DNA from: a virus
DNA length: 64,000 nt
Direction: 5' to 3' (one strand)
IMG/VR virus record: IMGVR_UViG_3300006217_000017
Coordinates: 1-64,000 of that record
The stretch's first letter is position 1; each line of letters starts with the position of its first letter. A program made the position numbers and the translations under genes. The notes under the pieces are model-generated. The model had not been told where the DNA came from. It worked only from the letters and a program-made list of their open reading frames with translations, and ran no database searches. Positions 2,501-9,220 of the stretch are shown piece after piece.

Positions 2501-3397
2501 CTAACTTATCTTCTGGAATCTCGTCATTCCCTTTGTCTTTACCATGTTCTTCATCTCTGGCGGAGCGTCCTCAAGCATTTCGTCAATCTCGTCAAATACG
2601 ACATTTAACATCTTTTCGGCTTCACGCATGGTTAATTGTTTATCTTCTGGCGTATTCCCTTTATGCTTTTCCTTTGTTTCCTCATATCCACGCTTTGCAC
2701 GTTCGTAACGTGAATTTCCGCCCTGACTTCTTCCTCTACTTTCTCCGTCACGATAGCCGTCTTCATATCCTCTGCGTTGCCCTTCATCAAAACCTTTTGT
2801 CTGACCGTCAGAGTAACCCTCGCTGTAACCACGGGAAGAACCACCAGAGTTACCGCCAGAATTACCGCCACTCATGCCGGAATTTCCAGACCGACCGCTT
2901 GTGCCACCGCTATTGCCCGATGAGCCACTAGAGCCGCCACCGCTAAAATACATGCGCCCTGATGCACGATCAACATCACGCCAATATTCAGCCGGGTACA
3001 TCTTGTAGCCCTCAATGTCCATACGGTAATCCATAGGCATCATTTCCTCGTACCCACGCCTGCCGCTGTTGCTTCTTCGTCCGTCTCCACGTCTCATAAA
3101 CCGACCAGACGTGCGACTTCTCGGCTGTCCGCTGTAAAATCTCTTTTCCCCTTCTTCTTCGCCGTATTCTTCTTTCAGCATTTTCAGAAAGTATTCATTT
3201 TCTTTCTTTTCGTCTTCCTCTTCTTTTTCCTTTTCCTTAGCTTCTCTTGCGTCCTTTTCTGCGCAACACAAGTCTTTTATCATATCAATCACATCAGGAA
3301 TCGCAAAATCACCAACATTACTTTTGTTTTCGTTAATTGCGGAAAGTGTACATTCCGTCAACTTTTCAACCATTTCATGGATTCTCTTAATATGCAT
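2501..3397 (-). CDS. low-complexity Gly/Ser/Asn/Arg-rich protein, function unknown
   Basis: 298 aa. An acidic KEKEKEEEDEKKENE block is followed by an Arg-rich block. Next comes a 36-residue run, GGGSSGSSGNSGGTSGRSGNSGMSGGNSGGNSGGSS. After that come G-Y/F-x-D/E-G repeats (GYSEGYSDG, GFDEG, GYEDGYRDG). Confidence 0.6.
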   Translation of the reverse strand: MHIKRIHEMVEKLTECTLSAINENKSNVGDFAIPDVIDMIKDLCCAEKDAREAKEKEKEEEDEKKENEYFLKMLKEEYGEEEGEKRFYSGQPRSRTSGRFMRRGDGRRSNSGRRGYEEMMPMDYRMDIEGYKMYPAEYWRDVDRASGRMYFSGGGSSGSSGNSGGTSGRSGNSGMSGGNSGGNSGGSSRGYSEGYSDGQTKGFDEGQRRGYEDGYRDGESRGRSQGGNSRYERAKRGYEETKEKHKGNTPEDKQLTMREAEKMLNVVFDEIDEMLEDAPPEMKNMVKTKGMTRFQKIS

Positions 3398-3417
3398 AAT
3401 CTCTTATCCTCCTTTCC

Positions 3418-3855
3418 TTATGCTCCCGGTGTCGGCGTAACTGCCGGAGCAGTACCGTCAACCGCTGGCAAATTGTTGTTCGGCTGACACGCCGGGTTCC
3501 CAAGCATCTTGAATGTCGCCCCTGTTGCCGTAGTTTCCACGCATACACTGTACTTGGTTCGGGTACGCACACCACAAGCCGTTACGGGTCTGCAACATCT
3601 GTTCACAAGCGGATATTCAACCGTTCCCGTACCTACTGTAAACACCACATTTGCCCCTATCGTTGTATCTGTCGGGATTGTCTGTGCCAAAATAATACAA
3701 TATTTTGAGTTGTTCTGATAACTTCCTGCCGGAAGATTCACCGTAAGCGTGCCCGGTGCGCCCCCAGTTCCTGCCGTAAACGTGATTGACTGGCTCAAAA
3801 CCAATCTATCGCACAGCCTACATACATTTTTACAAGCCATATATTTAACCTCCAT
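3418..3855 (-). CDS. Cys-rich, Thr/Gly-rich beta-type protein, function unknown
   Basis: 145 aa with 9 Cys, including CxxxCxxC at the N-terminus and a CC pair. The tail is Pro/Thr/Ala-rich. Confidence 0.6.
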   Translation of the reverse strand: MEVKYMACKNVCRLCDRLVLSQSITFTAGTGGAPGTLTVNLPAGSYQNNSKYCIILAQTIPTDTTIGANVVFTVGTGTVEYPLVNRCCRPVTACGVRTRTKYSVCVETTATGATFKMLGNPACQPNNNLPAVDGTAPAVTPTPGA

Positions 3856-3882
3856 TTCTCCAAATAAAAAACTACCAACCTC

Positions 3883-4071
3883 CTATTGGCTGGTAGTTTC
3901 TTCGTCAAATATATTCCTGTTACTTTGTAACCATTTGAGAAAAGGTAAGCTGTGAAATTCTGGCGAGTCCTTATCTTTTAATTTGTATAAGTTATTACAT
4001 ACATATCCACAAATTAAATCTGCCATTTCGTACTCGTTTTCACAGTTTTTAATTCGTTCAAAATTATTCAT
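3883..4071 (-). CDS. hypothetical protein
   Basis: 62-aa ORF lying in series within the minus-strand cargo operon. Confidence 0.4.
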   Translation of the reverse strand: MNNFERIKNCENEYEMADLICGYVCNNLYKLKDKDSPEFHSLPFLKWLQSNRNIFDEETTSQ

Positions 4072-4195
4072 TAAATCACCTCTTGACGATATTTTACACC
4101 AGCCAATATTCAGTTGTCAATGTGCAAAGCAAAAGGGCAAGACTGTTACATCTCGCCCCTCTGCGTATCTCAACCCAACAATTTGTGGGGAATAA

Positions 4196-4408
4196 TCAGC
4201 CGATTTCGGCGAGTTTTTTCAAGATTTCTTCCTGATTTTTAATAATCTTCTCAAGATATGCCTTGTTCTGGTGTTCTAACGCTCGCATGATGTCATCGTT
4301 TGACGACTGCTGGACATTCATCTGAAAATCCGCCATTTGCAGGAACGTGTCAAACATCGTCAGCATATCTATGAAAGACCACCGCCCGTTACCGTACATT
4401 AGCAGCAA
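4196..4408 (-). CDS. hypothetical protein
   Basis: 70-aa ORF. Its start overlaps the end of 4399..5292. Confidence 0.4.
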   Translation of the reverse strand: MLLMYGNGRWSFIDMLTMFDTFLQMADFQMNVQQSSNDDIMRALEHQNKAYLEKIIKNQEEILKKLAEIG

Positions 4409-5292
4409 CCGCCGCCAGCACAGCCACAGCCGTTATTGCCATAGCCAGCGTAGTTCACTGTGCCGCAGCAGTTAGTCGGGAAAGTGACAGGCTGCGGGGG
4501 CTGAACAATGTAAGCCGCTGTCGGGCATTCAGCACCAGTCTTTCTAAGAATTTCCGCCTTGTTCGCATCCATAGCTGCCATAAGCACATTGTTCTGTGTT
4601 GCCTGACTTGCGGAAAGTCTAAGAGCCTGATTTTCGCTCTGCAAGGTAGCAATCTTATCCTGACACAGATAATCAAGGATTGCCCTTGTTCCTGCGTTGT
4701 TGCTCTCGATAATATCTCTTGTATTGTTGTTCATCTGATTTGTGATAGCACAGGTATTGGTTGCCATGTTGTAGTTTACACCGTCAATGGCTCTCTGTGT
4801 TGCACAGCAGCAATCCGAAATCTGCGTCTGGATTGCGTTCTGTCCCTGCATATTTGCTACAGCCGCATTATTGATAGCCTGCTGTAAACCGAAGTTTCCC
4901 TGCATGATGTTTGTGTTCACACTGTTAAAGCCCTGACACAAGCTGTTCTGAATACCGCTCTGTGCGTTCAGAATCGAAGTGTTAACCGCATAAAATCCGT
5001 CACAAAGACCGCTGTTAATTCCGTCTAACTTGCCAAGGATTGCCTGCGTGTCAAACCCACGCTGAATAGATGCGTCCGTGTAGCTGTTGCCAACCACATA
5101 AGGTACTGCACCGCCGTTTCCGCCGTTGCCTCCCCAGCCGTTGTTGCCCCAACCGAAAAGCAGGGCAAATACAACCAGAATCCAAATCCAGTCGCCGCCA
5201 AAGCCATTCATTCCGCCGTTGTAACAACCGCCGCTGTTGGCAGGCTCCACGTTCATGGTTACGGGAATACCGCAATTTCCACTGTTAAACAT
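4399..5292 (-). CDS. Gly/Asn/Gln/Cys-rich membrane-anchored protein, function unknown
   Basis: 297 aa. The N-terminus is G/N-rich and surrounds a hydrophobic segment, WIWILVVFALLFGW. I count 16 Cys, including CCC and a C-terminal NNGCGCAGGGCC. A strong RBS (aaaggaggaag) is present. Confidence 0.6.
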   Translation of the reverse strand: MFNSGNCGIPVTMNVEPANSGGCYNGGMNGFGGDWIWILVVFALLFGWGNNGWGGNGGNGGAVPYVVGNSYTDASIQRGFDTQAILGKLDGINSGLCDGFYAVNTSILNAQSGIQNSLCQGFNSVNTNIMQGNFGLQQAINNAAVANMQGQNAIQTQISDCCCATQRAIDGVNYNMATNTCAITNQMNNNTRDIIESNNAGTRAILDYLCQDKIATLQSENQALRLSASQATQNNVLMAAMDANKAEILRKTGAECPTAAYIVQPPQPVTFPTNCCGTVNYAGYGNNGCGCAGGGCC

Positions 5293-5456
5293 ATTGTTTT
5301 CTTCCTCCTTTATGGATATATTTCATAAAGAGGAACCGGTTTTTAATGTGCGCACAACCTCAATATGTTCAAAGCTTCGGTCCGCATGAAAAACCGCATA
5401 AAATCAAGGTTTTTCACGGATTGACTGCCAAAAATGACCGTTTTTCGGTCCGGTAC

Positions 5457-5699
5457 TTATTTCACCCCAAACTGTTGCATAAGACCATTCCTTACATCGT
5501 CAACAGTTGTTCCTTTTTCTTTCGCAAGGTTCTCAGCCATAGACTTCAAACCGTCAATATTTCCGCTCTGAAACATCTCCATGGCGTTCATTGCCATAGG
5601 GTTTTGTACTATCTGGCTGTTTCCCATCATATTTTTTATCATAGCCTGCGGATTGCCGCCGCCTTTCATCATTTGAAAAATAGACATTATAGGGTTCAT
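5457..5699 (-). CDS. Met/Asn/Gln-rich small protein, function unknown
   Basis: 80 aa. Its start overlaps the stop of 5696..6208. Confidence 0.5.
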   Translation of the reverse strand: MNPIMSIFQMMKGGGNPQAMIKNMMGNSQIVQNPMAMNAMEMFQSGNIDGLKSMAENLAKEKGTTVDDVRNGLMQQFGVK

Positions 5700-6208
5700 T
5701 CCTCATCAGCTCCCTTCTTTGCCCTTGATGTAGTTTTTGAATTTGTAGCACCCATAGATTTCTCTATACTGTCAAGCCTTGCAAGAATATCCTCTCTCAA
5801 AGCCCTCACGTCCTCATTTAAGGCGTTAAAATCCATTTGTGGTATATTTGTACCATCTGCATTGTTTTCTGCCTGTACAGGGCGATAAACGACCGTTTGA
5901 ATAGTTCCGTTTGCCGTCCAAGACCGTACTTGCAACTCTGAACCGTCAGCTTTCGGAAAAAATGCCGCACTGCCATTCATGGGCACATCGTTTGCGGTCA
6001 GCTCAGAAAAATCATTGACAATCTTTCCAAAAATGCCTTGTGGTTGATTCTGCTGTATAGGCTGTTGCACAAACTGATTCTGCTGACTAAATTGTGGATA
6101 CTGCTGTTCCATCTGTATAAGCCTCTGTTGTGGACTTAGCATAGGGCTGTATCCGTTTTGATATGGACTATTCATCATCGGTTGGGAATAATTCGGATAT
6201 GATTGCAT
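5696..6208 (-). CDS. Gln-rich protein, function unknown
   Basis: 170 aa. I count 18 Gln in the first ~57 residues. A non-repetitive domain follows (IVNDFSELTANDVPMNGSAAFFPKADGSELQVRSW...). Confidence 0.6.
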   Translation of the reverse strand: MQSYPNYSQPMMNSPYQNGYSPMLSPQQRLIQMEQQYPQFSQQNQFVQQPIQQNQPQGIFGKIVNDFSELTANDVPMNGSAAFFPKADGSELQVRSWTANGTIQTVVYRPVQAENNADGTNIPQMDFNALNEDVRALREDILARLDSIEKSMGATNSKTTSRAKKGADEE

Positions 6209-6338
6209 AAGGATTTTCCTCCAATATATTTTCTAAGATTTCTTCGAACACATGGACGGCTGTAGCTTGTGTCCCTACGGGGATTTTTTGCATTTCTGGG
6301 TGAGAAAAAAATTTCTCTAAAATAAAGTCGCTAAACAT
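6168..6338 (-). CDS. hypothetical 56-aa protein, first gene of the cargo operon
   Basis: Hand translation: MFSDFILEKFFSHPEMQKIPVGTQATAVHVFEEILENILEENPYAIISELFPTDDE. The RBS is aaaggagattgaat-ATG. Confidence 0.35.
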   Translation of the reverse strand: MFSDFILEKFFSHPEMQKIPVGTQATAVHVFEEILENILEENPYAIISELFPTDDE

Positions 6339-7721: not shown

Positions 7722-7828
7722 ACGCTTTATAGACACATATTAGATTAAAAAATCATAAAACCCAGCCGTTTCCCTACATTTTTTAGTTTCTCTACTTACT
7801 ATAATAATACCGATTTATATAGGAAGTG

Positions 7829-9220
7829 CTAAACAGTAAAAAACACTTTCACATTATCATTCAAAATAACAACTTTTTCAACACACTGTTTTAACGCTTT
7901 GTTCTTTTCTCGAGAATTCAGTTTTTCCCATACATCGGAAATGCGCCTAATTTTATCAATTTTCTCCACATCAACACCCCTTTCAGCATCTTTAAACATA
8001 GACAATTCCATTTTTAAATCCGAAACCCTATTCTCTTCCTCCTGTATCAGTTCCATGAGATTGTCACTCTCTTTTTCAGCATACAACGAATAATATTTCT
8101 TAATCTTCGTATTGGATTTCTTGATAGCATCTTCAATAATTTCGGCTTTACTTTCGGTCTTCTGCGTTTCCTCGACATTAACCGAAAATCTCTTAAAAGC
8201 ATCCTCAACCTCTGCTTCGATTTCGCTTGCCCTTACCTTATCATTATCGCAATTTGGGTCTTTTATCATATACTCTTTCCCGTGTTTATATTGTGAGTAG
8301 CATACCAATTTATGATATTTCCCCCACTTCTGATACCGCATTCTCGCACCGCAAACGCCACAATAGCAAAGCCCGGTTAAGATATTGTCATTCGTTACAT
8401 GGGAATTTGTATGACGCTTCTTCATGCACTCCTGTGCCTGATAAAAAGTATGTTCATCTACAATTGGCTCATGCAATCCCTTATATTCCTCTCCCTTATA
8501 CTCGATAATTCCAATGTTTGACTTTCTCTTAATTATTTGTGTTACAATCCTCTCTCCTTTAAAACCAAGCATTTTCGATATTCGTTCGCAGGAATAACCG
8601 TCAATATACAGTTTGTATGCTTTCCTTACAATCTCCGCTTCATCTTCCTTCGGGTGCAATATACCATCATTTCGGTCATAGTAATACCCATACGGTGTTC
8701 TGCCACCGCCCATCCATAAGCCTTTTTTGACGCGTTCCTTCATCCCTGCCCTTGTACGCATATAGATGACTTCCCTCTCATACTGCCCCATAATGGCATT
8801 GACACCAATCATAACCTTGTCCATAGGGTTTTCAAACTTTAAATCCTCTGTCATGGAAACGACTTGTACGCCATATTTTGGCAGGAAACGATACAAAAGG
8901 TTCAGCGTGTCAATCACATCTCGGCTCATTCTGTCTAGCTTGTAGATAAATACCTTTGCAATCAATCCTTTCTCGCTGTCGTCAAGAAGTTCTGTTATCT
9001 GCGGACGGTCTAATTTGCTTCCACTATATCCTCCGTCTATGTACCACTTGTCAATAACCACTCCTTCCCTGTTGCAGTAGTCAAGTATCTTCTGTTTCTG
9101 CATATCCAAGCCATATTTCTCCGTCTGCGCTTCGGTTGATACCCTCAAATATGCCACATTCTGTTTTCTCATTGCCAAATCCTCCTTAAAAGGGAAATGG
9201 CTAGGTTTTGTACTAGCCAT
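7829..9220 (-). CDS. large serine recombinase (integrase type)
   Basis: N-terminal resolvase domain (VAYLRVSTEAQ...YIDGGYSGSKLDRP...KLDRMSRD). A recombinase domain, a Cys-rich zinc-ribbon segment and a coiled-coil follow. Total length is 463 aa. Confidence 0.9.
   Translation of the reverse strand: MASTKPSHFPFKEDLAMRKQNVAYLRVSTEAQTEKYGLDMQKQKILDYCNREGVVIDKWYIDGGYSGSKLDRPQITELLDDSEKGLIAKVFIYKLDRMSRDVIDTLNLLYRFLPKYGVQVVSMTEDLKFENPMDKVMIGVNAIMGQYEREVIYMRTRAGMKERVKKGLWMGGGRTPYGYYYDRNDGILHPKEDEAEIVRKAYKLYIDGYSCERISKMLGFKGERIVTQIIKRKSNIGIIEYKGEEYKGLHEPIVDEHTFYQAQECMKKRHTNSHVTNDNILTGLCYCGVCGARMRYQKWGKYHKLVCYSQYKHGKEYMIKDPNCDNDKVRASEIEAEVEDAFKRFSVNVEETQKTESKAEIIEDAIKKSNTKIKKYYSLYAEKESDNLMELIQEEENRVSDLKMELSMFKDAERGVDVEKIDKIRRISDVWEKLNSREKNKALKQCVEKVVILNDNVKVFFTV

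Follow-up and report, generated by a model that had tools for sequence, protein, structure and literature searches.

What function is served by a block of phage genes whose products are unusually rich in cysteine, glutamine, asparagine and glycine? The question is raised by a 64,000-nucleotide stretch of viral DNA (IMG/VR virus record IMGVR_UViG_3300006217_000017, positions 1 to 64,000; hereafter the window), in which eight open reading frames (ORFs), here named A to H, occupy positions 6338-2501 of the minus strand. A preliminary description, made from the sequence alone, had taken this block for a self-contained operon of lysogenic-conversion cargo next to the recombinase, possibly decorating or remodelling the spore or cell surface. 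We find that the block is the window copy of a widespread mobile accessory cassette of tailed Clostridia phages, which has its own regulation, is carried by thousands of gut Clostridia phages and encodes products that co-evolve as a set. In our preferred reading, to which we assign a probability of roughly 0.4, the cassette would encode a membrane-anchored, regulated protein assembly that is made in the infected cell, probably at the envelope.

The distribution of the cassette was followed through 168 loci, 89 collected from phage records and IMG/VR and 79 from GTDB genomes and assemblies, whose ORFs were classed by clustering and profile searches. IMG/VR yielded 516 cassette loci and GTDB 76. 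The conserved core across the 168 loci is B-C-D-(G or f0)-H, accompanied frequently by A and E, and its gene order is retained at D identities as low as ~25-30%. The idea that the eight genes might co-occur as a block elsewhere is thereby answered in two parts: the block recurs syntenically in hundreds of phage and prophage loci, but the eight genes are not a fixed set. The D family comprises at least 7,989 clusters at 90% identity and 2,114 clusters at 50% identity, all with lengths of 130-340 amino acids and none with a domain fusion. For G, at least 2,000 homologues were found, and for f0, a second family that is described below, at least 7,968. Carriers also include genomes labelled Lachnospira, Roseburia, Butyricicoccus and Christensenellaceae, the labels of metagenome-assembled genomes (MAGs) being imperfect. 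Among plasmids, D has a single match, on the 861-kb replicon of Vescimonas fastidiosa. D homologues were also seen on contigs binned to Bacteroidales, Victivallaceae, Lentisphaeria and Chlamydiaceae MAGs (L117, L118, L133, L135, L160-L165). These are probably mis-binned phage contigs; if the four bins are real, the host range would be much broader.

The cassette comes in two flavours. In the first, to which the window copy belongs, the order is A-B-C-D-(E)-(G or f0)-H, with a 68-amino-acid helix-turn-helix (HTH) protein as an optional upstream member and a 113-amino-acid HExxH protein as an optional downstream one. The second consists of f8-B'-C'-D-(G or f0)-H', where f8, a protein of 127 amino acids with invariant Cys, His and Asp, replaces A at the front. 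B and its counterpart B' from the head-module version of the cassette match the same PHROG, phrog_21718 (E 2.5e-12 and 1.8e-38, respectively), and D matches phrog_16490 (E 2.1e-60). H and H' are related at their C-termini (hhalign, 87.5%), and H' corresponds to phrog_28802. All PHROGs matched by the cassette are function-unassigned. The position between D and H is the variable one. It is filled either by G or by f0 (phrog_20016), a β-rich, Cys-containing protein of 140 amino acids that occupies the slot in most loci. G and f0 have no similarity detectable by hhalign and swap in this one slot in both flavours, so that the slot acts like an exchangeable specificity module. That f0 might be a TNF/C1q-like jelly roll is an idea formed by eye.

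Within the window, the eight co-oriented ORFs of the preliminary description are borne out, as are the unusual compositions of B, C, D, G and H. A (6338-6168, 56 amino acids, acidic) opens the window-type cassette and is present in 37 of the 89 phage-record and IMG/VR loci. The core protein B (6208-5696, 170 amino acids) consists of a Gln/Pro-rich low-complexity N-terminus, with 18 Gln in the first 57 residues, and a small C-terminal domain. C (5699-5457, 80 amino acids), also a core member, contains 16% Met, 11% Asn and 9% Gln. The hallmark core protein D (5292-4399, 297 amino acids) contains 16 Cys, ends in NNGCGCAGGGCC and carries, at residues 31-47, the sole hydrophobic segment of the whole block. 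Its end is overlapped by E (4408-4196), a helical protein of 70 amino acids (called as 67) that is frequent but dispensable and has shrunk to 30 amino acids in Lachnospiraceae bacterium A2. G (3855/3840-3418, 145/140 amino acids; public assemblies call the 140-residue form) is β-rich, contains 9 Cys and fills the variable slot. The core protein H (3397-2501, 298 amino acids) is laid out with helical N- and C-terminal segments that flank an acidic block, an Arg/Gly-rich block, a G/S/N run and GYxDG-type repeats; the run measures 39 residues, and three G[YF]x[DE]G motifs are present. Among the 68 minus-strand ORFs of at least 100 amino acids in the window, the summed fraction of Gln, Asn, Gly, Ser and Cys is highest in D (0.44) and B (0.35), compared with a median of 0.24.

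Such compositions would also suit a cytoplasmic condensate or matrix made of B (Q/P-rich), C (M/Q/N-rich) and H (RGG-, GS- and GY-rich) and nucleated at the membrane by D, that is, a phage 'factory' that concentrates replication or assembly. D shares the compositional bias of B, C and H, and H in particular joins acidic, Arg/Gly-rich and [GS]Y-type segments between folded ends. Export signals are absent from all cassette proteins, and the cassette is conserved in lytic contexts. This reading, however, argues from composition alone, and the low-complexity regions differ in length and sequence among homologues. The cassette has no link to replication or assembly genes and is dispensable in some variants, and we consider a condensate improbable.

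The expression signals of the block are at odds with the single self-contained operon that had been proposed. The two flanking terminators are present as described, namely a hairpin with a T-run at 6406-6369, which shields the cassette from upstream transcription, and a terminator-like hairpin after H at 2472-2447. Internally, a terminator-like hairpin with a T-run follows C (5450-5428), a terminator with an 8-bp stem and TTTTGCTTT follows E (4158-4126), and a hairpin with a T-run follows F (3896-3862), all on the minus strand. F itself (4071-3883, 62 amino acids) is preceded by a promoter of its own, a σA-type TTGACA-18-TAAAAT element at 4120-4091 that agrees with the consensus at 11 of 12 positions. 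Given the terminators after C, E, F and H and the separate promoter of F, the A-H block is more than one operon. With its own promoter and terminator, F is a separate small insert that occurs only in near-identical copies of the window phage; it is an insertion unrelated to the cassette and not a member of it.

A further element lies directly 5' of the ribosome-binding site of D. It is a conserved inverted repeat (5367-5304, minus strand) with outer arms CATA/TATG, which encloses the palindromes TGTGCGCACA and AACCGGTT. The repeat proper spans 5367-5324, and its 3' arm CCTCTTTATG can alternatively pair with the Shine-Dalgarno region (5333-5304). The sequence of the element varies by lineage, while its position and symmetry are constant in most related loci: 65% of distinct D upstream regions contain a perfect inverted repeat of 7 bp or more, compared with 15% for other genes. 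For 18 window-type sequences, RNAalifold gave seven pairs, four of them with compensatory changes, at a weak consensus energy. Rfam contains no match for the element. It could be an RNA switch or stabiliser or a protein operator, two possibilities that the small perfect palindromes in the loop make indistinguishable. Together, the internal terminators and this inverted repeat divide the expression of the cassette.

Upstream of A, the regulatory region has a fixed layout. The 68-amino-acid HTH protein (7637-7431, minus strand) is of the GerE/LuxR type and resembles σ region 4, and its Pfam GerE score is 28.2 bits against a cut-off of 23.5, beside weaker Sigma70_r4_2 matches. The head-module version has σ-r4 scores only, below threshold. 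Homologues of the HTH gene precede the cassette in 69 of 89 loci, head-module contexts included. The HTH gene is followed on its 3' side by two to four direct-repeat boxes at an 11-nt phase, a terminator whose stem contains the last box, about seven T and an extended -10 element without a -35. In the window, three to four boxes (TGTCGT / TGGCGG / AGTCGT / TGTCAC) lie ~11 nt apart at 6414-6377, 5' of the cassette promoter. This promoter, at 6375-6359 on the minus strand, is composed of the T-run and an extended -10 (TGcGATAAT), TTTTTTTATGCGATAAT, and has no -35. Phased arrays of TGTCGC, TGGCGG or GATACT types occupy the same position in many loci, and the density of TGTCG at the array position reaches 6.3 per kb, against 0.65 per kb overall. 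Of 118 distinct loci, 48 have the promoter motif in the 400 nt that precede B, compared with 32 matches elsewhere in 3.7 Mb. The motif is unique in the 64-kb window, and a role as a general late promoter was ruled out by this single occurrence.

Across phage groups, the type of box changes together with the putative recognition helix of the HTH protein. This co-variation makes the linked HTH protein a likelier regulator than a constant host factor, and we infer that it is a candidate activator that acts at the boxes. A comparable arrangement is known from the lactococcal phage TP901-1, where the activator-dependent late promoter is served by the activator Alt and has upstream direct repeats. 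Both systems combine a promoter without a -35, upstream direct repeats in helical phase and a small DNA-binding protein encoded nearby. The promoter described here drives the cassette only, is unique in the window and does not serve the structural genes, and its putative regulator is a 68-residue HTH protein of the LuxR/GerE type. The core of the boxes, TGNCG, resembles the '0A boxes' of Spo0A. An assignment of the boxes to Spo0A was set aside, as the box types vary by phage in step with the linked HTH protein; a co-occurrence of the boxes with Spo0A-C-like genes was looked for and could not be shown. By sequence reading, no CATA-type -10 element is conserved at the cassette promoters, which look like σA extended -10 or -35/-10 types and not like σE, σK, σF or σG promoters.

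The individual proteins offer few comparisons with known families. Neither Pfam nor NCBIfam contains a family for any cassette protein, even at E≤1 (eight proteins and their head-module counterparts), and 74 diverse D homologues scanned singly returned scattered coiled-coil noise only and no CotY/CotZ-type family. PADLOC gave no defence-system match; protein E produced one weak match at chance level (E 0.008). Profile searches against PDB sequences with D in three alignments, G, f0 and f8 returned nothing significant. The best, non-significant D matches are coiled-coil stalks such as ATP synthase subunit b (E 0.06-0.14), and a CW_7-type lysozyme match (E 0.016) disappeared with other alignments. 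The earlier impression that the proteins have no direct homology to the known spore coat and exosporium proteins is upheld by Pfam and NCBIfam, and the cassette is catalogued in function-unassigned PHROGs only. Likewise, no functional study of the cassette was found in the literature on CPD1, prophage spore coat or exosporium, and Ceridwen, in line with the view that the module had not been described before. The cassette has no characterised relative or functional study in these libraries and this literature; structure prediction from deep alignments or HHpred could still reveal a known fold.

AlphaFold2 was run on G and D with input alignments of close homologues only. For D, the predicted model (mean predicted local distance difference test score, pLDDT, of 51) contains helices at residues 34-46 and 114-251, the latter continuous at pLDDT 56-77. 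The N-terminus of the protein, rich in Gly and aromatic residues, contains the hydrophobic segment; a long helix rich in Gln and Asn follows, and the tail is rich in Pro and Cys. In the D alignments, three features are nearly invariant: Gly at positions around the hydrophobic segment, a CCC triplet midway along the helix and a C-terminal CxC. As modelled, D looks like a hydrophobic anchor joined to one helix of ~140 residues. Because the AlphaFold2 models are of low confidence, a membrane anchor and an oligomeric stalk are put forward here as putative features. The G model (mean pLDDT 54.6) contains five strands in its N-terminal half, and a Foldseek search with it returned a best E of 1.2. 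The invariant residues of the G alignment include an N-terminal CxxxCxxC and a CC pair. The former lies at residues 3-10 of the 140-residue form in all G homologues; its spacing is typical of 4Fe-4S ligands, and G is far too small for a radical-SAM enzyme. No hydrophobic or signal segment was found in the cassette proteins other than D, and no signal peptide or lipobox in the ORFs neighbouring D.

The layout of D, an N-terminal hydrophobic anchor followed by one very long helix, is shared by subunit b of the F-ATPase and by the i-spanin Rz. D differs from both in its Gly/Asn/aromatic-rich N-terminus, the CCC triplet, the Cys/Pro-rich tail and the lack of a lipoprotein partner, and the matches are not significant. 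Rz-type spanins have an N-terminal anchor, a long helix and conserved Cys, and D is built along the same lines. In one reading, the cassette would be an accessory to lysis or release, working on a further layer of the envelope once holin and endolysin have acted, with D as a membrane-anchored coiled coil of i-spanin-like build. Its position fits this idea in part. In 6 of 10 diverse GTDB loci it lies 0.3-1.5 kb past an endolysin, and an integrase of opposite orientation often comes next; it also stands 3' of the lysis genes in the Butyrivibrio fibrisolvens phage Ceridwen, and 3' of holin and endolysin in Bajarodcaudo virus 5, where it closes the late operon. However, Clostridia hosts are monoderm and have no outer membrane, a lipoprotein partner and a signal peptide are absent, and the lysis genes of the window phage lie ~36 kb from the cassette. 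The region behind the lysis genes is, moreover, a classic spot for unrelated accessory genes. We consider a lysis function quite improbable.

Other carriers place the cassette elsewhere in the genome. It follows a serine integrase in the window phage and Dulem virus 39, follows a tyrosine integrase in Lachnospiraceae prophages, and, in the phages CPD1 and HMD-PC1 of Clostridium perfringens, lies in the early region. An abundant gut phage of 45 kb has it inserted between a MuF-like minor head gene and the scaffold and capsid genes. A location in the structural module thus holds for the 45-kb lineage and does not hold for the window, CPD1, HMD-PC1 and most prophages. In the 45-kb phage (L032:11856-12537), three tRNA-like genes, recognised by eye from GGTTCGA-type T-arms, stand between the cassette and the scaffold gene; these neighbours mark the head-operon site as an accessory island. 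Of 69 sufficiently long copies of this phage, 68 keep the cassette, and in one copy C' and D have no match. In L254, a variant of the window phage (compared with window 10021-5198), a frameshift splits B and D is cut to 43 amino acids; NikA-like and P22_AR_N antirepressor genes stand in place of the rest of the cassette, from D codon ~31 on. All this shows the cassette to be accessory yet strongly retained.

In these respects it resembles morons, autonomous units that temperate phages carry as accessories (for example lambda bor/lom and HK97 gp15). Like them, it is inserted between conserved phage modules, its presence or absence is independent of the backbone, and it has its own promoter and terminator: both lie upstream of A, a terminator follows H, and the motif is kept across loci. 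Unlike morons, it comprises five to seven syntenic genes instead of one, brings along a candidate activator and phased boxes of its own, and also occurs in a phage judged virulent. For Ceridwen, only lytic growth has been observed and the authors judge the phage to be virulent (PMC7372960). The presence of the cassette in Ceridwen suggests that it acts in lytic growth. Together with its place between head-morphogenesis genes in the most abundant lineage, this makes the earlier assignment to lysogenic-conversion cargo doubtful.

The same contexts bring virion-associated proteins into consideration. The cassette products might be internal head, ejection/pilot or decoration proteins that are packaged and delivered with the DNA; as extended, low-complexity proteins they would be well suited to pass through the tail. 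The P1 Dar system and the T4 internal proteins are examples of accessory sets of several genes whose products enter the head. The cassette, too, is a non-essential set of several genes; in one lineage it has head genes nearby, and a protease-like member belongs to one flavour. It has no homology to these sets and also occupies several other genome positions. In favour of a virion role, the most abundant lineage has the cassette flanked by the MuF-like minor head gene on one side and the scaffold and major capsid genes on the other, Bajarodcaudo virus 5 has it as the last part of the late operon, a virulent phage carries it, and one flavour opens with the protease-like Cys-His-Asp protein f8. 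The Gly-rich hydrophobic segment and long helix of D are also like those of membrane-inserting viral proteins, although such PDB matches are not significant. Against this, a terminator, promoter and regulator of its own insulate the cassette even within the head operon, where tRNA-like genes adjoin it; in the window, CPD1/HMD-PC1 and many prophages, a long distance separates it from the structural genes; and variants without D or without D-H exist. No virion proteome of a carrier phage turned up, no literature search having been aimed at virion proteomics. We regard a virion role as unlikely, though it is the foremost of the alternatives.

We postulate instead that the cassette directs a protein assembly at the membrane of the infected cell. 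The HTH protein would bind the boxes and turn the cassette on once the upstream operon has run. D would insert into the cytoplasmic membrane by its hydrophobic Gly/aromatic-rich segment and oligomerise through the ~140-residue helix with its CCC motif and Cys-rich tail. The exchangeable Cys-rich β protein (G or f0) and the low-complexity proteins B, C and H would then be recruited by D, and a membrane-associated protein assembly would result. Its likeliest role would lie at the cell envelope during phage development, for example in keeping competing phages out or in modulating release, and the spore is a less likely site of action.

Several points weigh against this proposal. The searches of Pfam, NCBIfam, PADLOC and PDB sequences all came back empty. 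The hydrophobic segment of D is short (~15 residues) and has no flanking positive charges. The putative partners of D carry no signal peptide, and their assembly with D is deduced from the sequences. Binding of the HTH protein to the boxes is read from co-variation between phylogenetically separate groups, and both AlphaFold2 models, of G and of D, are of low confidence. Furthermore, a multi-gene cassette would be unusual for superinfection exclusion, and its place in the head module of the most abundant lineage suits a virion role just as well. Most of the doubt concerns the function of the cassette and not its anatomy.

A link to sporulation is raised by the integration site of the window phage. 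Two integrated copies (L252 and L253, from different sequencing runs) are 100% identical to the window down to position 7808, beyond which they enter a host gene that lies on the other strand. Over its first ~99 residues, the product of this gene (L252:8937-9251, and L253) matches SigG (NF006071, E 8e-49, 167 bits, profile positions 1-103 of 258), compared with 96-105 bits for SigF models of the same fragment, and the SigG-like reading frame ends at FSTYAVP. The integrated copies exit the phage 21 nt after the stop codon of the serine recombinase, which places the phage attachment site (attP) at 7808-7829. As read from these junctions, the window phage apparently integrates into the host sigG and splits the forespore σ factor gene; the opposite prophage-host junction was looked for and not recovered. 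The putative attP lies between the integrase and the 68-residue HTH gene, and the window would accordingly represent the circular or replicative form. The proximity to the recombinase noted before applies to this circular form. In the lysogen, the position of attP (~7808) between the integrase and the block puts the cassette at the prophage end opposite the integrase. Serine-recombinase elements that split sigK, spsM and gerE are documented (PMC5595907, PMC4191935, PMC5025042), sigK and gerE being mother-cell genes (PMC5595907). We found no report in the literature of a comparable element in the forespore gene sigG.

A different junction was seen in the JGI contig L004 (11098-11600, compared with window 3893-4173), which passes at window position 4048, codon 8 of F, into a host adk gene midway along its length. 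The fragment of adk contains a TAA in frame, and map-infA-rpmJ-rpsM-rpsK-rpoA come next. This junction was dropped as a candidate attachment site after L252 and L253 had placed the junction 21 nt past the integrase; L004 is probably a chimeric assembly or a secondary rearrangement. The Spo0A C-domain gene of the preliminary description is found as a 102-residue ORF at 38340-38032 (minus strand); it lacks a receiver domain and is similar to the C-terminal, DNA-binding domain of Spo0A. In the region of the recognition helix, the ORF has TARVERGIRHAF, where Spo0A has ASRVERAIRHAI.

The host of the window phage sporulates, the phage splits sigG, and a Spo0A C-domain-like gene is aboard. These observations favour the original proposal, in which Gln-, Cys- and Gly-rich proteins are lysogenic-conversion cargo that is built into, or remodels, the spore coat or exosporium or the cell surface of the lysogen. 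The compositions are like those of cross-linked coat proteins, and the regulator has the size and type of GerE, a 74-residue factor for outer-coat genes (PMC5595907). In GerE and the coat proteins GerQ, CotY/ExsY and CdeC/CdeM, as in the cassette, a small stand-alone HTH protein of the GerE type accompanies Gln-, Cys- and Gly-rich genes. The Cys-His-Asp pattern of f8 would, speculatively, also fit a transglutaminase-like enzyme. In contrast to those systems, the cassette shows no sequence relationship to coat proteins in the Pfam and NCBIfam scans, which gave nothing for CdeC/CdeM either: no cassette protein is similar to GerQ, CotY/Z or another family, the GerQ C-terminal family (Pfam Spore_GerQ) has no match in B or its head-module version, and the CotY/CotZ family has no Pfam or NCBIfam match in D, G or the 74 D homologues. 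The promoters are of the σA type, the boxes differ by phage and track the phage HTH type instead of a constant host factor, secretion signals are absent, and the cassette also lies inside head operons. Nor is the cassette restricted to phages of spore formers. Butyrivibrio, the host of Ceridwen, is classically described as non-sporulating, and Lachnospira, Roseburia, Butyricicoccus and Christensenellaceae are likewise regarded; the cassette occurs in the virulent Ceridwen and in genomes labelled as these four taxa. The spore hypothesis is thereby weakened, within the limits of imperfect MAG labels, and we now consider it very unlikely.

A bolder variant of the membrane assembly may be considered in the light of these observations. 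In it, the cassette would build a new, phage-made layer or matrix that is anchored in the membrane and cross-linked by Cys, with D as the stalk, G or f0 as the exchangeable head and B, C and H as the matrix. Such a layer might coat the membrane of the infected cell, embed the progeny or, where the host sporulates, mark the forespore. In the window phage, together with the splitting of sigG and the Spo0A-C-like gene, it could tie the fate of the phage to sporulation. We regard this variant as speculative and rather unlikely.

Some neighbouring genes adjoin the cassette without clearly belonging to it. Downstream of H, the 113-residue protein with an HExxH motif (HELVH) is encoded at 2340-1999 on the minus strand and matches the function-unassigned phrog_1233 (E 1.1e-9). 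A homologue follows H in 38 of 89 loci. It is a possible metallopeptidase, judging by this motif, and its membership in the cassette is uncertain. A free-standing HNH homing endonuclease of 248 amino acids (7164-6418, minus strand; phrog_3377, E 7.7e-82; phrog_374, E 5.4e-64) lies between the HTH gene and the boxes. In other phages, its homologues are found inside or beside the cassette at varying positions; the gene is an insertion and not a cassette component. A second HNH-type, homing-endonuclease-like gene at 761-1993 on the plus strand is a paralogue of it, and the two share the motif ...L.RID....Y.P.NCRW.T...Q..N. This 410-residue paralogue adds repeated CxCDCG Zn-ribbon-like units and is preceded by a 93-residue HNH gene (479-760).

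As a whole, the cassette is among the commonest uncharacterised gene sets in the Clostridia phages of the human and animal gut. D, G and f0 each form thousands of sequence clusters, and the carriers include the 45-kb gut phage, which is highly prevalent. That five to seven genes are conserved together, equipped with a candidate activator, a promoter and putative translational control of their own, points to a selected multi-protein function. Two cultured systems, Ceridwen on the one hand and CPD1 with HMD-PC1 on the other, make this function directly testable. The prophage that splits sigG bears, in addition, on phage interference with sporulation in gut anaerobes. If the proposed membrane-associated assembly is true, it would be a new kind of phage-built assembly and thus a new item among the effects of tailed phages on Gram-positive cells.

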